DNA from: Candidatus Hydrogenedentota bacterium
Lineage (GTDB): Bacteria; Hydrogenedentota; Hydrogenedentia; Hydrogenedentales; JAEUWI01
Assembly: GCA_034669905.1 (NCBI GenBank)
Contig: JAXMOL010000011.1
Span: 64,001-128,000 of the forward strand
DNA: 64,000 nt
Direction of reading: 5' to 3'
The position numbers and the translations under genes were made by a program. The notes under the pieces were generated by a model. That model saw nothing but the letters and a program-made list of their open reading frames with translations. It did no database searches and was not told the DNA's origin. This document shows, piece after piece, positions 1 through 6,923 of this stretch (its first letter is position 1; every line of letters begins with the position of its first letter).

Positions 1-2
1 GC

Positions 3-176
3 CGGGAACTCCGCGTCTACCCCCTCGTCACGCTGGAGGGTGAACCCTCCCCCCACCTGGAGCCAGCACGGCGGGCCCTGGCAATCGACGGATTCGAGAG
101 CGAGCTGTGTCCGGTGACCTATCGCTTCCAACGGGGCGCTACCCATATGTTACGTGTTGTCCCGGCCCATCCATGA
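3..176 (+). CDS. C-terminal fragment of a probable SAM-dependent methyltransferase (5'-truncated by window)
   Basis: Manual translation of frame 3: RELRVYPLVTLEGEPSPHLEPARRAL...VTYRFQRGATHMLRV*, resembling the ExRxxPL...SPHL...YxFQRG..ML tail of an uncharacterised methyltransferase family; TGA at 174-176. Confidence 0.6.
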   Translation, partial: RELRVYPLVTLEGEPSPHLEPARRALAIDGFESELCPVTYRFQRGATHMLRVVPAHP

Positions 177-246
177 CGTGCGTTGACCCCGACCTGCGCC
201 TCGGTTATATTCGGAACCAGCAGTTCACACCACGGAGAGCATCATC

Positions 247-945
247 ATGAAACAGGTTGTTCGCGTCGTCTTCACGTTGGGTGGGCTCCTCGCCCTTGCG
301 GGGGTAGCGTATTGGTTCAGCCGACCGGCACTACCCGTCCCCGTGGGCGCTCCGACCCCCGCCCCGACGGGAGCCGGATGGATCAATCTGCTGGATGAAG
401 CCCATCGCGGCGCCTGGCGCAATATCACGGACGATCGGGAGATCTTCGCACTGGAAGACGACCAACTCCACATCTTTGGCCACACCGTGTACCCCCTCCG
501 CTATGTGGGCTATGAAACGGAGCGCTTCGGCGACTTTGAGCTGCATGTAGAGTTTAAGGTCGCCCCCGGTGCCAACAGCGGTATCTTTCTGCGGGCCCAG
601 GCCAATGATCCGGTTTACCGCGGCTTTGAAGTACAGGTCCTGGATGACCACGGTAAGGCACCCAACAAGAATGGCTCGGGGGCCATCTACGATGTGGTCT
701 CCCCCATGTACAATATGGCCCTGCCCGCCGGGGAATGGAACAGCTATGACATCACCGTGGTGGGCGGAGAAGTCATCGTTTTCATGAACGGCTGGCGTGT
801 CGTCCATGCCAACCTCGACCAAATGACCATGCCCATCGGCAAATACAAGGCCCCCTTTGCAGAACTTCCCCGCGATGGGCTCCTGCTTTTTCAGGACCAC
901 GGCGGGGAAGTCTGGTATCGCAATGTGTGGCTTAAGAAACCCTGA
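247..945 (+). CDS. DUF1080 (3-keto-disaccharide hydrolase-like) protein with N-terminal anchor/signal
   Basis: Motifs FGDFELHVEFK, ANSGIFLR, GFEVQVLD, GEWNSYDI, QDHGGEVWYRNVWLK; GGAG RBS upstream. Confidence 0.9.
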   Translation: MKQVVRVVFTLGGLLALAGVAYWFSRPALPVPVGAPTPAPTGAGWINLLDEAHRGAWRNITDDREIFALEDDQLHIFGHTVYPLRYVGYETERFGDFELHVEFKVAPGANSGIFLRAQANDPVYRGFEVQVLDDHGKAPNKNGSGAIYDVVSPMYNMALPAGEWNSYDITVVGGEVIVFMNGWRVVHANLDQMTMPIGKYKAPFAELPRDGLLLFQDHGGEVWYRNVWLKKP

Positions 946-1109
946 ACAGGCGAAGATTCATCTCGGACATTTTCCAAGTCATTCGGTTGCCATCTTAACG
1001 ATTTGGGGCTTGGGAGTGCAGGCGCTTGCGTACGCCGTCGTAACGAATGAAATGGAATTGAGTGAGGTCTACCTCCGCTCATGTAGCCCGGTTGGGCAGA
1101 GCGGCCTGC

Positions 1110-1883
1110 TCAGCCTTCCTGCAGCTTCCGCTCGAGCAACTGATTGAGTTCCTTGCTGAGGGCCGCAATCCGGGCATCCAGCGATTCATTGTCCACGTCT
1201 TTCTTTTTTTCGCTTTCGTGCACTTCCTGGTAGTTATTGAGGACGGCCCCCACCACCAGGTTGATAAGCAGGAAGGTACCGATCATGATCCAGGACACAT
1301 GGTAGGTGGTCACCACCCAGTAGTTCCGATGGGGCAGGCCGTCGTAGCGCAGGTCGGTCCAGTCTTCGCAGGTGAGCGAGCGAAAGAGGGAAAAGAAGGC
1401 TTCGTGGAGCGTGCCATATTCGCTGGGCTGCCCTTCCCCGAAGAGTTCCACGCCCATGACGGCGTAGATATAGAAGCAGATGGTCATGAGCAAGGCGATG
1501 TAGACCATGGAAGACAGGGACTTGATGAGGACGGAGACGATCAGCCGAAGCTCATCGAGGCCATCCACCAGGCGCAGCACCCGGAATACCCGGAGCACCC
1601 GTAGCAGGGTTGCGATGGTGGAGATGTTGGGCACGAATGCCGAACCGACGACGATGATATCGAAGATGTTCCAGCCATTGCTGAAAAAGGTCTTCAGGTT
1701 TTCGCGGGCGTAGAACTTGAGCGCCAACTCGACGACGAAGACCCAGATACAGACCCACTCCAGCAAACGGATAACGGGCGATTCCACGTAGGTCGACAAT
1801 CCAATCAGGAAGGCATTGAATATGATTACGCCGAGAATGATACGACCGAAAAGGGTGCTGTTAATAAACTTCTTGGGATGCAT
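1110..1883 (-). CDS. Voltage-gated cation channel, BacNav/Ion_trans family (6TM)
   Basis: S2 VFVVELALK, S3 NGWNIFDIIVV, S4 LLRVLRVFRVLRLV, pore FSLFRSLTCEDWTD, S6 FLLINLVVGAVLNN, C-terminal coiled coil; start moved to MHPKK (CAGGAG RBS). Confidence 0.95.
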   Translation of the reverse strand: MHPKKFINSTLFGRIILGVIIFNAFLIGLSTYVESPVIRLLEWVCIWVFVVELALKFYARENLKTFFSNGWNIFDIIVVGSAFVPNISTIATLLRVLRVFRVLRLVDGLDELRLIVSVLIKSLSSMVYIALLMTICFYIYAVMGVELFGEGQPSEYGTLHEAFFSLFRSLTCEDWTDLRYDGLPHRNYWVVTTYHVSWIMIGTFLLINLVVGAVLNNYQEVHESEKKKDVDNESLDARIAALSKELNQLLERKLQEG

Positions 1884-1952
1884 GGGGGCAACTACTCCTG
1901 ATTGCTGGAATCCGAAGGCGGGCATTCGCCGACATCCAGCGCGCTGTGGGCA

Positions 1953-4109
1953 TTAAAACACCGAGGTATAGGTAATGTATCCAAAAATGGCGAATGCCAG
2001 CGGGACGAGGGTCACCGCCGACACAAAGTCAAGTTTCAGGGCCATGGCGTCACGTTTCCGAATAACGAGCCAGTTGGCCACAATACTCTCCAGAATAAGC
2101 GTAAAGGTCAGAATATAGGCGCTCATGAAGTACTTGTCTGCGGACACCAGGTAGCCCACGTTGGGCCAGGCCTCCTCCTGGGAAAGGTGGAACACGAGGA
2201 TACTCAGGAGTGCGGTCATCACGAGGGATACCCGGGCGTCGAACTGGCTATTGGGAATCAGGAACATCAGCAGGCTGACCGAAACCATGATGAAGAAGGG
2301 CAGAAACAAGGTTACCAGATAGGGGAAAAGAATCCGCTTGATGATAATGTTGGTCTGGTAGATGGAGAACTCCACGTCACTGTCGCCACCGGTGTAGTTG
2401 GGGTCACCGAAGGTGGAGCTGAGCGCATGGGTTCCGGAATAGTCTTCCCGCCCGACATAGTCCCACTCTTCGGGATAGATCTCGTGGAGGTAGGCGTGGC
2501 TCAAATTCTTGGCGTCGAGCACCAGCATGATCTGGCTGGCATCTTTGCTCTTGTGTGATACCGTGATCGGCAGGTGCTGGGTATCAAAGGGAAATAACCG
2601 AACGTCATAGGGCGTCAGGTAGGTACCTTTAATCTTGTAACAGATGTACTTGATGTCACCGCTTCGGTCTTCCCGAAGCACTTCGGTTTTGTCCTCGATG
2701 CCATATATTCCGTTGAGGAAATCGATGTTTTCCACATCAATATCCCCTTCCCAGCGGAACCACATGAAGAATTCCACGTCGAAATTCTGTCCGGCCACAT
2801 CCACGCTATTGATACGGTAAAAATCGAGGCCGGCATAAACCACACGGGTCAGGTAATAAGGTATCTTGTCGCTCACCACGACTTCGTTTTCGGCAATGCG
2901 GGATTGAAGGTTGTTGAGGACATGGGGCTCGGTAACGCGGCGCAGCTGGGTAAAGGCCGGTTTGAACTGTCCATCGTCGATATAACTCACCACAATGGGC
3001 CGCCGCATCGCCCCGTGCTCGTCAAAGTAGAGTTTCCCCGTAATGCCCGTGAAAGCGTTTGCCGGTCCGTCGTAGGCCAGCAGCCCATTGCGGAGCGCGG
3101 TGCGGTCGGCTCCACTGGCCTCAATGGCCGCGGCGATCATGCGCCCGGCATCGTAGCAGAAGGCCCCCCATACCGTGGGAGCCACCTGGTATTTCTCAAA
3201 GTATTTCGCTTCATACTCCTGGGCGAACTGCTTGGTCATGAGCGAAGAAAGCTCATAGAGGAATGGACTGGACACATAGACCCCGGCCGTATCTTCGCCC
3301 AGGCTGGTGATAAAGTCCTGTTTCGCAAAGGAATCGGGCCCCATGACGGGCATGGTCACGTCGGCCTCACGCAACTGACGGACGAGTTTTCCACCGTCGG
3401 CGGTATGGGAGAAGAGCACCGCGGCATCGGCCGTGCCCCCCTGCGCGGCATCGAGCTGGGTGGCAACGAAGTCGGCTCCGAACTTGTTCTCTTCGCTATA
3501 GGGGATGGTCTGGACAATTTCCATACCCAAGCGACGGGCCTTGCGGCTGAAGCTTTCCAGCAGGCCCGTGCCATAGGCATCGTCAGAATGAATGACCAGG
3601 ACCCGTTTGGTCTTGAGCACGACCTGCAGATAGACCGCGAGGTTCTCCCCTTGAAGATCGTCCTCATAGTTCATACTGAAGGACCATTCGCTGCTCCGGG
3701 TCACCTTGGGATTACTGGCCGAAGGCGAAATGTGGGGCAATTGGTACTGGGCGTAGACTTCACTGGCGGCCAGGGCCACGCCGGAAAACTGGTGCCCGAT
3801 GACTGCGAGTATATTCGGATCTTTGCCGAATTGTCCGGCGATATTCCGCGCCATGTCGGCGTTATTTTGATCGTCCTTAAACACGATTTGGAGGGGACGT
3901 CCCGCGATACCGCCATTCTGGTTGGTGACTTCGACCAGCAATTCGAGGGCGCCACGCATGGCCCGACCCTCACTGGCGTTGCCGCCGGAAAGGGGCAGGG
4001 AGGCACCGAGCAAGACGGGTTCATTGGCCGCAGCAGCCAGTGTGAAGACAATCAGAAGTGCCAGTTGAAACATCGTGCGGCAGATTGGGTGCATCATAGG
4101 GTGGAGCAC
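1953..4109 (-). CDS. Pentameric ligand-gated ion channel (Pro-loop) fused to an N-terminal type I (LivJ-like) periplasmic binding domain
   Basis: Signal peptide, then LGASLPLSG...NQNGGIAGRPLQIVFKDD (Peripla_BP_6-like); ECD VYAGLDFYRINSVD..FDVEFFMWFRW; Pro-loop YDVRLFPFDTQ; four TM helices with M1 proline, M2 DARVSLVMTALLSILVFH and M2-M3 loop WPNVGYLV. Confidence 0.92.
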   Translation of the reverse strand: MLHPMMHPICRTMFQLALLIVFTLAAAANEPVLLGASLPLSGGNASEGRAMRGALELLVEVTNQNGGIAGRPLQIVFKDDQNNADMARNIAGQFGKDPNILAVIGHQFSGVALAASEVYAQYQLPHISPSASNPKVTRSSEWSFSMNYEDDLQGENLAVYLQVVLKTKRVLVIHSDDAYGTGLLESFSRKARRLGMEIVQTIPYSEENKFGADFVATQLDAAQGGTADAAVLFSHTADGGKLVRQLREADVTMPVMGPDSFAKQDFITSLGEDTAGVYVSSPFLYELSSLMTKQFAQEYEAKYFEKYQVAPTVWGAFCYDAGRMIAAAIEASGADRTALRNGLLAYDGPANAFTGITGKLYFDEHGAMRRPIVVSYIDDGQFKPAFTQLRRVTEPHVLNNLQSRIAENEVVVSDKIPYYLTRVVYAGLDFYRINSVDVAGQNFDVEFFMWFRWEGDIDVENIDFLNGIYGIEDKTEVLREDRSGDIKYICYKIKGTYLTPYDVRLFPFDTQHLPITVSHKSKDASQIMLVLDAKNLSHAYLHEIYPEEWDYVGREDYSGTHALSSTFGDPNYTGGDSDVEFSIYQTNIIIKRILFPYLVTLFLPFFIMVSVSLLMFLIPNSQFDARVSLVMTALLSILVFHLSQEEAWPNVGYLVSADKYFMSAYILTFTLILESIVANWLVIRKRDAMALKLDFVSAVTLVPLAFAIFGYITYTSVF

Positions 4110-4233
4110 GGCAAATTCCCTCGTTGGTCAACTACGCTGAGGCCCGGATAGTCGTTGGTACCGTGTACTGCGCATGGCACCAATCGCTCGCACGCCAGCG
4201 ATTTTTGGGCCGTCTTCCCGACGTCGATGCGGT

Positions 4234-4242
4234 AGTGTAGCA
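4234..4242 (-). promoter_or_regulatory. Candidate extended -10 promoter for the channel operon
   Basis: Minus strand reads TG-C-TACACT about 125 bp upstream of the pLGIC start; no good -35. Confidence 0.35.
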
Positions 4243-4273
4243 AATGGCTTGTGAGTACCGGAAACGTTCCGCG

Positions 4274-4302
4274 TTGCCAATCTCCGGTGACGGTCGTATA
4301 AT
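4274..4302 (+). promoter_or_regulatory. Sigma70-type promoter for the MaoC-yajQ operon
   Basis: TTGCCA-17 bp-TATAAT. Confidence 0.7.
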
Positions 4303-4366
4303 GGAGCCCACGTGAGATTTCGACCATCCCTGGTCGCCTGTTCATACAACTACCCAGCGAGTTTTT

Positions 4367-5284
4367 ATGGCATCACCAGATACGATCGACCTGAATTACA
4401 CGGAGCCCCCAGGCTTTCTACCCATCTATCGGCGGCTCCTCTTCGGGAGACGGGCCAGGTATGTGGCCAACAGTGCTTTACCCCACTTTCGGGCCACCTG
4501 GTCAGGCGCGAAGGCCGATGCGGCCAAGGTGGAAGCCTATTGTGCCGCCTGTTCGCTGGAATACGATGGGCACTACCCCATTTTGTATCCCCACATCCTC
4601 ACGTCGGCCATCCATCTCGACATGATGAGCAAGCCGGCCTTTCCCCTCTCCCCCATGGGCGCGGTGCATGCGCGGAATCACATCCTCCAGCATGCCCCCA
4701 TCCCGGTGGATGGGGCCCTGGAAGTGACCTGTGAGCTGACAGCCACCCGGGTCTTGAAGCAGGGCGTGGAATTTGAAGTGACCACCGTGCTGGAAACAGG
4801 AGGCACCCGTTGCTGGGAAAGCATCAGTGCCTACCTCGTGCGCGGAAAGAAATATGGCGAAGCCGGTGAAGCCTCGGAGCGTGCCGAGTTGCCCGAGGTG
4901 GGCGATAGTGCAAAAACCGATAGCTGGCCGGTGCCCAAAGACATGGGTTGGCGCTACGCGAAGATAACGGGGGATTTTAACCCCATTCACGTATCCCGGC
5001 TGCTGGCCCGCTTGATGGGCTTTCAGCGGGACCTGATTCATGGCATGTGGTCGGCCGCCCGTTGTGTGGGCCATGCGCCCGCCGTCGCACCCGCCTACCC
5101 GGTGCAATTGGATCTGGTCTTTAAGGGCCCCGTATATATGGAGAGCACGGCCACGATGAAGGCCACCGGCCAGGATGATGGCACGCTCTTTGAACTTTAC
5201 TGTGATGACAATCCCCGCCCGTGTATTCGCGGGCAGATAAAGCCCATTGCTGCAACGACCCGACTGGTCGCTGACAGCGCGTAA
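4367..5284 (+). CDS. MaoC-like double hot-dog acyl dehydratase
   Basis: Hydratase motif YAKITGDFNPIHVS...IHGMW; N-terminal hot-dog FPLSPMGAVH. Confidence 0.85.
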   Translation: MASPDTIDLNYTEPPGFLPIYRRLLFGRRARYVANSALPHFRATWSGAKADAAKVEAYCAACSLEYDGHYPILYPHILTSAIHLDMMSKPAFPLSPMGAVHARNHILQHAPIPVDGALEVTCELTATRVLKQGVEFEVTTVLETGGTRCWESISAYLVRGKKYGEAGEASERAELPEVGDSAKTDSWPVPKDMGWRYAKITGDFNPIHVSRLLARLMGFQRDLIHGMWSAARCVGHAPAVAPAYPVQLDLVFKGPVYMESTATMKATGQDDGTLFELYCDDNPRPCIRGQIKPIAATTRLVADSA

Positions 5285-5298
5285 GAAAGGAATACCGA

Positions 5299-5790
5299 AT
5301 GCCCTCCTTTGACGTGGTCAATGAAGTGGACTTGCAGGAAGTCGACAACGCCGTAAACATCACCAAGAAAGTGCTGGCCAACCGCTATGACTTTCGGGGA
5401 TCGGAAACGGAGATTAACCTGGACCGGAAACAGCTCCAGATCACCATCTCCACCGAAGATACCATGCGTATGCAGGCGGTGCAGGACACGCTGGCGACCA
5501 ATCTCATCAAGCGGAAGCTGAGCCCCAAGGCCCTGGAGTATAAGGAGCCCGAAGGCACCTCCAAGGGCGGCGTGCGGGTGGTCGTCGCCCTGAAGCAGGG
5601 TATCGACAAGGAAATGGCCAAGAAGATCACCAAACTCATCAAGGACCAGAAGATGAAGGTCCAGACCCAGATCCAGGATGAGCAGGTGCGTGTGACGGCC
5701 AAGAAGATCGATGACCTGCAGACCGTAATCGCCCTCTTGAAGGAGCAGGAACTCGACATCCCGCTCCAATATGTCAACATGAAGAGCTAG
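5299..5790 (+). CDS. yajQ: YajQ family nucleotide/c-di-GMP-binding protein
   Basis: MPSFDVVNEVDLQEVDNAV, RYDFRGS, LKQGI, QIQDEQVRVT, PLQYVN. Confidence 0.95.
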   Translation: MPSFDVVNEVDLQEVDNAVNITKKVLANRYDFRGSETEINLDRKQLQITISTEDTMRMQAVQDTLATNLIKRKLSPKALEYKEPEGTSKGGVRVVVALKQGIDKEMAKKITKLIKDQKMKVQTQIQDEQVRVTAKKIDDLQTVIALLKEQELDIPLQYVNMKS

Positions 5791-5795
5791 GAGCC

Positions 5796-6923
5796 ATGAT
5801 GCTACTCCCGACTGTGCGCACTGTGAGTCTGTTGCTCACCCTCTCCGCCGCCACCCTCGTGATGGCTGCGGAAAAGGGGCCCCTCTGGCTTCATCCGGAC
5901 ACCACGCCGTTACCCACCGACAAGCTGGGACCCTTCGTTCGCGCGGCAGACAACGTGCTGATCACGGTGGACAAGGAAGGCGTGCACCGGAGTAGCGACG
6001 AAGGCACGACCTGGCAAAGCGCGCCGCTGGAAGTAGACATCCCCTTTGAGGTGAGCAATGAGCGGGCCCTCATCTACACGTCGGATGGGGTGCTGATACT
6101 GGCGTGTATGAATCTAAAGGAAAAGGTCTGGAAGTGGAACAGCACCCTCCACGATGCAGACCCCGGCACCACCCTGCCCACCTACGCAGTGCGGAGCCTG
6201 GACCAGGGGAAGACCTGGGAGAGCCCCATCAAACTCCATGATGAATGGAGTGGCTGCGTGCGCAACATGATCGAAACGAAGGAGGGCCTCATTGTTTTCA
6301 CGGCCATGCGTCTCCTCACGAAACCAGGCCGGCACTCGGTCTTGACCTATTCTTCGGCCGACGGGGGCGCCAGCTGGAAGCCCAGCAACGTGGTGGATCT
6401 GGGGGGCCAGGGACATCATGGTGGCGCGACGGAAGCGACGGTCATCGAATTGAACGATGGCCGCCTGTGGAAGCTCATCCGCACCAACCTGGGCGTCTTC
6501 TGGCAGGCCTGGTCGGAGGACGGCGTCTACTGGCGCACCCTGGCACCCACTACCATCCCGGCGAGTAGCGCGCCGGGTCAATTGCTGCGCCTGAAGAGCG
6601 GGCGAATGGTCCTGCTCTGGAACCGCCCCTATCCCGAAGGGGAAAACACGTTTCCGCTGAGCGGTGGCGATCGGGAATGGTCGGAGACCCCGGTGAGCAA
6701 CCACCGTTGGGAACTTTCCCTGGCCTTTTCGGAAGACGACGGCCTCACCTGGACCGCGCCCATCGTCATCGCCCGCCAAAGGGAGGTGTGGCTCGCCTAC
6801 CCCTATCTGTTTGAGCAGAAACCCGGCACCCTGTGGCTTACCACCATGCAGGGGCCGGTGCGTGTATCTTTTGAGGAATCCGATTTCTGGAAACTGGCGA
6901 ACGAGACAACGACAGGACATTGA
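5796..6923 (+). CDS. Secreted BNR/Asp-box sialidase-family protein
   Basis: Signal peptide; Asp-boxes SSDEGTTW, SLDQGKTW, SADGGASW, SEDGVYW, SEDDGLTW; AYP motif. Confidence 0.85.
   Translation: MMLLPTVRTVSLLLTLSAATLVMAAEKGPLWLHPDTTPLPTDKLGPFVRAADNVLITVDKEGVHRSSDEGTTWQSAPLEVDIPFEVSNERALIYTSDGVLILACMNLKEKVWKWNSTLHDADPGTTLPTYAVRSLDQGKTWESPIKLHDEWSGCVRNMIETKEGLIVFTAMRLLTKPGRHSVLTYSSADGGASWKPSNVVDLGGQGHHGGATEATVIELNDGRLWKLIRTNLGVFWQAWSEDGVYWRTLAPTTIPASSAPGQLLRLKSGRMVLLWNRPYPEGENTFPLSGGDREWSETPVSNHRWELSLAFSEDDGLTWTAPIVIARQREVWLAYPYLFEQKPGTLWLTTMQGPVRVSFEESDFWKLANETTTGH

Follow-up and report, generated by a model that had tools for sequence, protein, structure and literature searches.

Recurrent but optional pairing of a binding-protein-fused ligand-gated channel gene with a voltage-gated channel gene in Hydrogenedentota

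The locus

The window analyzed here is a 64,000-nucleotide stretch from a Candidatus Hydrogenedentota bacterium (assembly GCA_034669905.1, contig JAXMOL010000011.1, positions 64,001 to 128,000); its genome, designated G000, is 95.7% complete. On the minus strand of the window, two open reading frames (ORFs) at 1953-4109 and 1110-1883 are both open and intact and are separated by 69 bp. The upstream ORF encodes a Pro-loop ion channel of the pentameric ligand-gated type (pLGIC), and the downstream ORF encodes a voltage-gated cation channel with six transmembrane segments (6TM). The whole genome contains a single pLGIC gene and two PF00520 genes, namely, this channel gene and one for a TVGYG-type K+ channel. 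An initial annotation of the window had described a pLGIC gene followed on the same strand by a channel gene and had proposed the two as a candidate minimal excitability circuit. The gene order was as described, with the gap at 1884-1952, and the pairing is real, recurrent, and optional and is apparently undescribed. Papers cited below by PubMed Central number are represented by the covered parts of their text.

The upstream gene encodes a PBP-I-fused pLGIC

The pLGIC gene (1953..4109, minus strand) encodes 718 amino acids from a GTG start or 714 from an ATG at 4097, comprising a signal peptide, a type I periplasmic binding-protein (PBP-I) domain, and a Pro-loop pLGIC. The GTG is preceded by GAGGGA 7 nt upstream, and a GTG with a purine-rich element is also found in the congeners G005 and G007. 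The binding domain and the channel core lie in a single stop-free ORF. The initial annotation did not mention the N-terminal binding domain, which makes up about half of this ORF. A profile search of the ORF identified it as PF13458 (residues 33 to 380, E value of 2e-52; 2958..4016, minus strand), a LivJ/LivK-type domain and probable amino acid sensor. PF02932 scored over its cutoff on the transmembrane helices M1 to M4 (1959..2327, minus strand). No match to PF02931 was obtained in the ORF at an E value of ≤0.001; the extracellular beta-sandwich with its Cys-less Pro-loop (2334..2864, minus strand; FPFD loop at 2583-2609) was recognized instead by modeling and fold search. The AlphaFold2 model of the protein (predicted local distance difference test [pLDDT] score of 90.2) has strands at residues 412 to 588 and helices at 591 to 713. 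In Foldseek searches the first half of this model resembled amino acid binding proteins and the second half resembled GLIC and GABA-A receptor chains, with E values of about 1e-18.

Residues typical of the superfamily are retained. In an alignment of the query with 44 of 52 homologues, P503 of the Pro-loop, D505, and the pre-M1 residue R588 were invariant in all 45 rows and aligned with the same motif of GLIC/ELIC chimeras. P600 and P645 were likewise invariant, and in the M2 alignment L9' was found in 37 of 37 rows and R0' in 34. The M2 gate, the M1 proline, and the M2-M3 proline were placed by their usual positions in the superfamily. A PF13458 or PF01094 domain was present in 48 of the 52 homologues. 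The Pro-loop proline is reported to be absolutely conserved in the superfamily (PMC4795631).

The M2 helix reads D(-2') A(-1') R(0') ... L(9') ... E(19') E(20'), with no proline at -2'. The cationic M2 signature is GE[K/R] or a GLIC-type acidic residue at -2'. GLIC has an acidic Glu-2' (PMC3590989), and the aspartate at -2' occurs in just 18 of 37 relatives. In animals, A(-1')R(0') is the mark of an anion channel, but the site is not predictive in prokaryotes (PMC4795631). Cation selectivity is therefore not readable from M2, where a GLIC-like acidic residue stands beside the animal anion motif. By general electrochemistry, a Cl- channel would also be expected to depolarize a cell resting near -150 mV.

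The binding domain is the best clue to the ligand of the pLGIC. Its best solved relatives are binders of branched-chain amino acids and of alanine or GABA. The pocket motifs align with those of Streptococcus pneumoniae LivJ, a Leu-bound Desulfitobacterium protein, and Atu2422, at just 22 to 28% identity. The LivJ/LivK residues that were compared by this alignment are those we take to hold the amino and carboxyl groups; among the relatives, S/T128 was present in 37 of 45 rows and Y175 in 27 of 45. The predicted ligand is likely an L-amino acid. At this level of identity, and given that the same binding fold also takes aromatic acids in the fold search, the prediction does not fix the ligand.

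The downstream gene encodes a voltage-gated channel with an AnclNav-like filter

The downstream gene (1110..1883, minus strand) encodes 257 amino acids matching PF00520 with an E value of 5e-45. The protein is built as a BacNav fold, with an S1-S4 sensor, periodic S4 arginines, counter-charges in S2 and S3, and an S5-P1-filter-P2-S6 pore. The S4 voltage sensor (1569..1604, minus strand) carries four arginines at every third position (R95, R98, R101, and R104). In the channel alignment F49, E52, D75, R95, R98, R101, T171, and W175 were invariant in 38 of 38 rows. The AlphaFold2 model had a pLDDT score of 84.9, and Foldseek aligned it to NavMs, NavAb, and CavAb with template modeling scores of 0.68 to 0.76.

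The earlier designation of a complete BacNav-type 6TM channel thus holds for the fold but not for the selectivity filter (1353..1373, minus strand), which reads TCEDWTD rather than the canonical TLESWAS or TLESWSM. Six of its seven positions are those of the NavPp filter TLEDWTD, which we took as agreement with the AnclNav pattern TLE[D/G]W[T/V]D with an acidic position 7, and by this filter alone the channel is classed as putatively AnclNav-like. NavPp passes Na+ and is blocked by Ca2+, and its slowed mutant T232A half-activates at -17 mV; CavMr half-activates at -52 mV (PMC7041947 and PMC8677417). From the aspartate at position 4, our channel is expected to pass Na+ and to be blocked by Ca2+. 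A designation as a Ca2+ channel was considered and set aside, as the same aspartate argues against CavMr-type selectivity. A different filter, TCDAWAE, with fewer acidic residues, is found in the channels of four congeners (L007, L009, L067, and L069 in G002, G006, G008, and G001, respectively). This form is under purifying selection (nonsynonymous rate [dN] of 0.029 and synonymous rate [dS] of 0.58 for G001 versus G008) and may possibly have a different selectivity.

Promoter-like motif and intergenic spacer

A promoter-like motif of the extended -10 type, TTTGCTACACTA (4233..4244, minus strand), lies upstream of the pLGIC gene and is ancestrally the upstream element of the channel. The motif, TTTG(C/A)TA(C/G)ACTA, could be aligned in all eight genus members examined; G004 was left out of this comparison since its contig ends inside the pLGIC gene. 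It stands before the pLGIC gene in G000, G005, and G007 and before a lone channel gene in G001, G002, G003, G006, and G008. Of the 23 matches to the motif pattern in the genome, 19 are noncoding, and the genome is 85% coding by a rough gene call. No extended -10-type match was found in the 69-bp gap.

As the initial annotation had noted, the channel gene has its own ribosome-binding site and the gap lacks a U-tailed terminator. An AGGAG element (1899-1895) lies 11 nt before the channel ATG, and both element and spacing are kept in G007 and G004. Positions 1 to 6000 contain six terminator-like sites, none of them in the gap. The gap can form a hairpin of -18.4 kcal/mol, a value without shuffle control; the hairpin has no U tract, and neither G007 nor G004 preserves its sequence. 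One sequencing run yielded six short contig pieces, none of which crosses the gap, and was uninformative. A single pLGIC insertion between the channel gene and its promoter, the simplest reading, would make co-transcription likely, with the two genes probably sharing the promoter at 4244-4233.

History of the locus within the genus and phylum

Among 135 genomes of the phylum, the pLGIC gene was detected in four (G000, G004, G005, and G007), which form one clade in the rpoB tree (support of 99). The channel query matched 26 of the 135 genomes. Twelve close forms of the channel, including those of five genomes from other families that lack a pLGIC (56 to 66% identity), form one clade with a support of 100 in a quick tree built with no reference BacNav sequences. 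Five of the eight congeners have the channel without a pLGIC. In four of these (G001, G002, G006, and G008) the site is empty, with the same flanks and the channel alone. In G003 the channel is alone with a different upstream gene, and the filter TCEDWTD is kept. The four empty-site congeners share TCDAWAE, and all pair-bearing genomes keep TCEDWTD, a difference that amounts to a single event.

The pair is adjacent in three of nine genus genomes. It is intact in G000 and G004, and in G007 it is adjacent but split by an assembly break. At about codon 84 of the channel gene, the G007 contig (L065:1-145) passes into low-GC sequence that resembles an adenylate kinase piece, and it is probably an assembly chimera. 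In G005, the end of an ISAzo13-family transposase gene (L004:2-208) directly follows the pLGIC stop codon, at the place of the channel in its relatives, and the usual convergent neighbor is located elsewhere, without a channel. Both genes of the pair are under purifying selection (dN/dS of about 0.01 to 0.1). The pLGIC core compared with that of G007 gave a dN of 0.017 and a dS of 1.55, and the channel compared with that of G004 gave a dN of 0.128 and a dS of 2.69; dS is near saturation in these comparisons.

Of the two genes, that of the channel has been at this locus longer. Since the pLGIC occurs in only one clade and congeners have the channel alone behind the same motif, the pLGIC gene was probably inserted once between the channel and its promoter, in the ancestor of the four-species clade, as judged from these comparisons. 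Acquisition of the two genes together is disfavored by the close channel forms in other families without a pLGIC. An ancestral pair with later losses is the other way to read the distribution, and the position of G003 in the rpoB tree, with a support of just 43, leaves some room for it.

Flanking features

The pair is bounded, as had been stated, by a divergent and a convergent gene: a MaoC-family gene (4367-5284, plus strand) on the pLGIC side and a 3-keto-disaccharide hydrolase-family gene (247-945, plus strand) on the channel side. The MaoC-family gene has a sigma-70-like promoter (4274..4302, plus strand) with 11 of 12 consensus matches, and its -10 element is visible in congeners. In G001 a short tandem repeat with a 10-bp unit (L069:8622-8960) occupies the spacer from the MaoC promoter to the promoter-like motif of the channel. 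Between the channel and the convergent gene lies a dispersed, hairpin-forming intergenic repeat (942..1089, no strand assigned), for which blastn returned 43 pieces across 26 other contigs of the genome; it had no Rfam match. The Rfam search of positions 800-4500 gave no matches at an E value of ≤1, so a riboswitch is without support. A recent foreign island was also rejected, as the third-position GC content of both genes (0.71 to 0.78) matches that of their neighbors (0.70 to 0.83).

Pairing outside the phylum

Outside the phylum we collected 92 pLGIC loci, of which 86 had a complete membrane part and 42 of these a binding domain; 27 of the 42 extended at least 1.2 kb on both sides, and a few were duplicates. 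A BacNav-type gene adjoins the pLGIC gene at two loci. At L029, from a Spirochaetia metagenome-assembled genome (contig VFLI01000025.1), the channel gene is divergent to the pLGIC gene and has the CavMr-like filter TMEGWID. At L043, on the metagenome contig Ga0213839_1003981, the channel is also divergent, with the filter TLEDWTD, and both proteins group with Myxococcota-like sequences. Both channels fall outside the Hydrogenedentota channel clade. The comparison of gene neighborhoods and phylogenies called for in the initial annotation thus revealed adjacency in two other lineages, so the arrangement is not confined to this one, but no co-phylogeny, and most relatives are unpaired. By these trees and gene orders, the pairing arose about three times independently from local genes. 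Transfer of one cassette between phyla was rejected, given three pLGIC clades among unpaired sisters, host-local channel clades, and differing orientation.

A filter-confirmed BacNav-like match of more than 125 bits was present in just 4 of 20 other pLGIC genomes and was missing from 16. Larger searches found pLGICs in 79 of 401 Myxococcota-phylum genomes and 31 of 190 Leptospirae-class genomes; three of these belong to the 20-genome set, and in the remaining genomes adjacency was judged by comparing coordinates by eye. In the 77 Myxococcota-phylum genomes, 33 had a PF00520 gene, none adjacent to the pLGIC gene (nearest on the same contig, 49 kb); in the 30 Leptospirae-class genomes, 27 had one, again none adjacent (nearest, 72 kb). 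No channel neighbor was seen at 31 further loci from two additional phyla, in which 21 of 401 and 8 of 401 genomes were positive. With assumed inputs (both genes in 27 genomes, of which six are a guess, and 4,500 genes), random gene order would give 0.02 pairings versus the 2 seen, and the probability of two or more would be about 3e-4.

In G067, the 3' end of the channel gene and the 5' end of the pLGIC gene both lie at contig ends. The two genes of G066 are probably not adjacent, because an identical pLGIC core at L048 has a CLC gene upstream. This CLC-family chloride channel/antiporter gene (L048:336-1883) is directly upstream of the PBP-pLGIC gene on the same strand and was recorded, like the next case, in a scan of 30 chosen neighbors. 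Directly after another PBP-pLGIC gene, L042:5910-8768 encodes a PBP-I domain, a weakly pLGIC-extracellular-like stretch, and an MscS domain. ORFs of about 1,150 amino acids in many Leptospirae-class genomes, matched only over model positions 1 to 177/195, may be the same PBP-MscS fusion. One PBP-fused member was described as sharing a predicted operon with a Na+/H+ transporter gene (PMC549065). The CLC, PBP-MscS, and Na+/H+ transporter neighbors suggest a broader pull of these genes towards ion-flux genes.

Other arrangements were noted in passing. Tandem BacNav-type genes with the filters TMEGWPD and TTEGWP(N/S) occur at L140 and L141 (G568 and G566), an old duplication in two genomes. In a Desulfobacterota-phylum search, several loci (L174, L170, L177, L176, L181, and L186) had pLGIC genes in tandem or a PBP-pLGIC gene with a large PBP-bearing gene immediately upstream of it. 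In the Myxococcota phylum (e.g., L122 to L128) several pLGICs of about 820 to 890 amino acids begin with the channel core, which is followed by a long C-terminal extension.

Host physiology and electrical feasibility

The host genome encodes NqrA, has six flagellin matches, and has a stator whose best matches are PomA/PomB (L131:678-2289), which makes sodium-motive force and motility a plausible output of the pair. No match to CheW or to methyl-accepting chemotaxis proteins (MCPs) was found in G000. CheW was matched in four of five congeners (G004, G005, G007, and G008) and not in G003, which is pLGIC free. A role for the pair as a replacement for chemotaxis was therefore rejected as a general explanation, since the pair-bearing G004 and G007 have CheW and G003 has neither a pLGIC nor CheW.

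In a toy cell model with an assumed capacitance of 94 fF, an assumed pumping current of 0.2 to 3 pA, and a pLGIC conductance of 9.3 pS (PMC3590989) or an assumed 50 pS, a single open pLGIC brought the membrane to between -4 and -112 mV within 1 to 9 ms. Seven of the 12 settings passed -52 mV, and 1 passed -17 mV. Coupling of the pLGIC to the channel appears feasible in this model. The proposal that pLGIC depolarization reaches the activation range of its partner thus holds in most settings for a CavMr-like midpoint but in only one for the midpoint of the NavPp mutant. As the cell is already largely depolarized at threshold, the channel would add Na+ entry and time course more than gain. The excitability circuit of the initial annotation accordingly stands in part: its genes are intact, selected, and recurrently paired, but neither needs the other, and spike amplification is the weakest step.

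Comparison with known systems

The upstream protein is of the PBP-I-fused ART-LGIC/pLGIC kind predicted in 2004 by Tasneem, Iyer, Jakobsson, and Aravind (PMC549065), with the same signal peptide, PBP-I domain, beta-sandwich, and four transmembrane helices. These proteins were predicted there to be chemoreceptors acting via ion flux, by analogy with a Bacillus Na+ channel. The neighborhoods given in the covered text of that paper include PBP-II, Cache, and Na+/H+ transporter genes, and a voltage-gated channel neighbor is not mentioned in it. None of our fold and structure matches was a solved structure of the full PBP-I-pLGIC fusion. GLIC, ELIC, sTeLIC, and DeCLIC share the Cys-less Pro-loop, the beta-sandwich, and the four helices, with an acidic -2' residue as in GLIC. 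However, identity in the fold search is only about 16 to 21%, and the pLGIC of the window adds the LivJ-type domain and A(-1')R(0'). For its transmembrane part, the highest scores were those with GABA-A and glycine receptor chimeras, and the protein lies far below the cutoff of NCBIfam LGIC_1 (54 versus 500 bits).

NavPp and CavMr, the AnclNavs, are likewise single-domain 6TM channels, and the NavPp filter is nearly identical (PMC7041947 and PMC8677417). In contrast to them, the channel of the window belongs to a phylum-specific clade (support of 100) and has a short pore turret and a cysteine at filter position 2. With the canonical BacNavs NaChBac, NavAb, NavMs, and NavBP of Bacillus pseudofirmus it shares the fold, the four S4 arginines, and the C-terminal helix, but it lacks TLESW and is about 30% identical; a pLGIC partner of canonical BacNavs is not mentioned in the literature covered. 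At animal synapses, depolarization by Cys-loop receptors is amplified by Nav and Cav channels. The two superfamilies and the possible order of events are the same here, as an analogy only. The pair is not an ancestral circuit, since the pairing is recent, optional, and independently assembled from local genes.

Interpretation and rival explanations

We tentatively favor, with a little less than even confidence, a facultative, co-expressed ion-flux module that was made by insertion and is coupled only via expression and membrane potential. A horizontally acquired PBP-I-pLGIC gene would have entered the stretch from the promoter of an already resident TxEDWTD-type channel gene to its start, and both genes would have been kept. 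A single transcript would start from the motif at 4244-4233. An L-amino acid would close the binding domain and open the pentamer, and the ensuing ion flux would depolarize the cell within milliseconds. At about -50 to -20 mV the voltage-gated channel would open and add Na+ influx damped by Ca2+. This influx would drain the sodium-motive force that probably powers the host Na+-NQR and the PomAB-like flagellar stator. Each channel would also work alone, the voltage-gated one adding Na+ flux and time course, not gain. The empty site, the shared motif, the distribution in 4 of 135 genomes, the dN/dS values, the two further juxtapositions, the ion-flux neighbors, and the host NqrA and stator support such a module, to a degree that stops just short of an even chance.

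Several findings weigh against this reading. Outside the phylum, a BacNav-type neighbor was present at just 2 of the 42 PBP-fused loci, and the pLGICs of L029 and L043 belong to different clades, where their sister sequences are unpaired (L112 and L111; L044 and L056). With adjacency in only three of nine genus genomes and incongruent trees, the pair is not a conserved two-gene system. The enrichment, calculated from assumed numbers, weakens to a P value of 0.023 under tenfold clustering of accessory genes and to 0.27 if any 6TM channel counts. G005, which is 94% complete, keeps the pLGIC under purifying selection, and no channel was found in it. No current was obtained from two other AnclNavs whose filters resemble that of NavPp (PMC7041947 and PMC8677417). 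The stator ion is read from PomA/PomB best matches below curated cutoffs. Finally, weak promoter-like matches in the 3' end of the pLGIC gene (2140-2112 and 2317) could drive the channel separately. Separate transcription units, with the gap hairpin ending the pLGIC message and a channel promoter inside the pLGIC 3' end, would be in keeping with the hairpin energy and with the 9-of-12 match at 2140-2112. We nevertheless consider this arrangement very improbable: the hairpin has no U tract and is not conserved in sequence, the 2140-2112 match is at chance level (6 found versus 2.7 ± 1.6 in shuffles), and the ancestral motif of the channel is now upstream of the pLGIC.

The ion-flux module ranks above two further alternatives. 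The nearer of them, which we regard as rather unlikely, is a passenger insertion, in which the pLGIC took over a housekeeping promoter and displaced the channel to a downstream position, co-transcription is accidental, the two proteins function independently, and the other two cases are due to chance in plastic parts of the genome. The confinement of the pairing to one shallow clade fits this explanation, as does the lack of adjacency in the 77 and 30 further pLGIC genomes, though 33 and 27 of them have a PF00520 gene elsewhere. The 31 unpaired further loci, the variable neighbors, the opposite orientation and unrelated channel clades of the other two pairs, and the persistence of either gene alone point the same way. 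It accounts less well for two independent repeats where about 0.02 were expected (P of about 3e-4 from assumed numbers) and for retention of the pair across a dS of about 2.7 between G000 and G004. The occurrence of TCDAWAE in empty-site congeners and TCEDWTD in pair-bearing genomes also speaks against it, as one event, with TCEDWTD also in the pLGIC-free G003. Less probable still is a dedicated excitability relay that has been repeatedly selected, in which a cation-selective pLGIC triggers a partner that makes a regenerative spike or a Na+/Ca2+ signal controlling motility. Three independent juxtapositions, an intact voltage sensor, an acidic -2' residue as in GLIC, the 7 of 12 toy settings that pass -52 mV with one open pLGIC, flagella without CheW or MCP matches in G000, and the ion-flux chemoreception proposed in PMC549065 are all consistent with it. 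However, the genes do not obligately co-occur, the NavPp T232A midpoint of -17 mV was passed in 1 of 12 settings only, and little gain is left in a cell largely depolarized at threshold. The A(-1')R(0') motif, nonpredictive as it is in prokaryotes, is that of animal anion channels, and with CheW in pair-bearing G004 and G007 and none in pLGIC-free G003, the pair is no substitute for chemotaxis. In its fullest form, which we likewise hold to be improbable, bacteria would repeatedly have assembled a relay of an amino acid-gated pLGIC and a voltage-gated Na+ channel (here) or Ca2+ channel (Spirochaetia, TMEGWID). The output of such a relay would be all or none and would act on a Na+-driven flagellar motor, as a brake or a switch, independently of the Che pathway.

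Significance

The pairing is surprising, yet it carries less weight than a conserved circuit would, and the host is represented here by assembled genomes only. No description of it was found in the literature searched, in agreement with the initial annotation; that scope excludes the gene neighborhood Figure 3 and the supplements of PMC549065 and most subscription papers. No biological role was known for any unicellular pLGIC according to section 14 of PMC4795631. Both parts of the pair are members of described kinds. To our knowledge, just as little is established about what most BacNav-type channels do in their own cells. In this pair, the range of ligands to consider is narrowed by the binding domain, and the filter of the partner predicts the ion. 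Congeners that carry only the channel, a channel with an altered filter, or only the pLGIC are natural controls, as are two independent pairs with different filters. Gating of a PBP-I-pLGIC via its Venus flytrap domain would parallel animal glutamate receptors even without coupling. If the coupling is true, convergence would have produced a bacterial relay from chemical to electrical signals. Such a relay, if true, would be the first native function to be assigned to any pLGIC of a prokaryote, and it would match, by convergence, the logic that leads from synapse to spike in animals.

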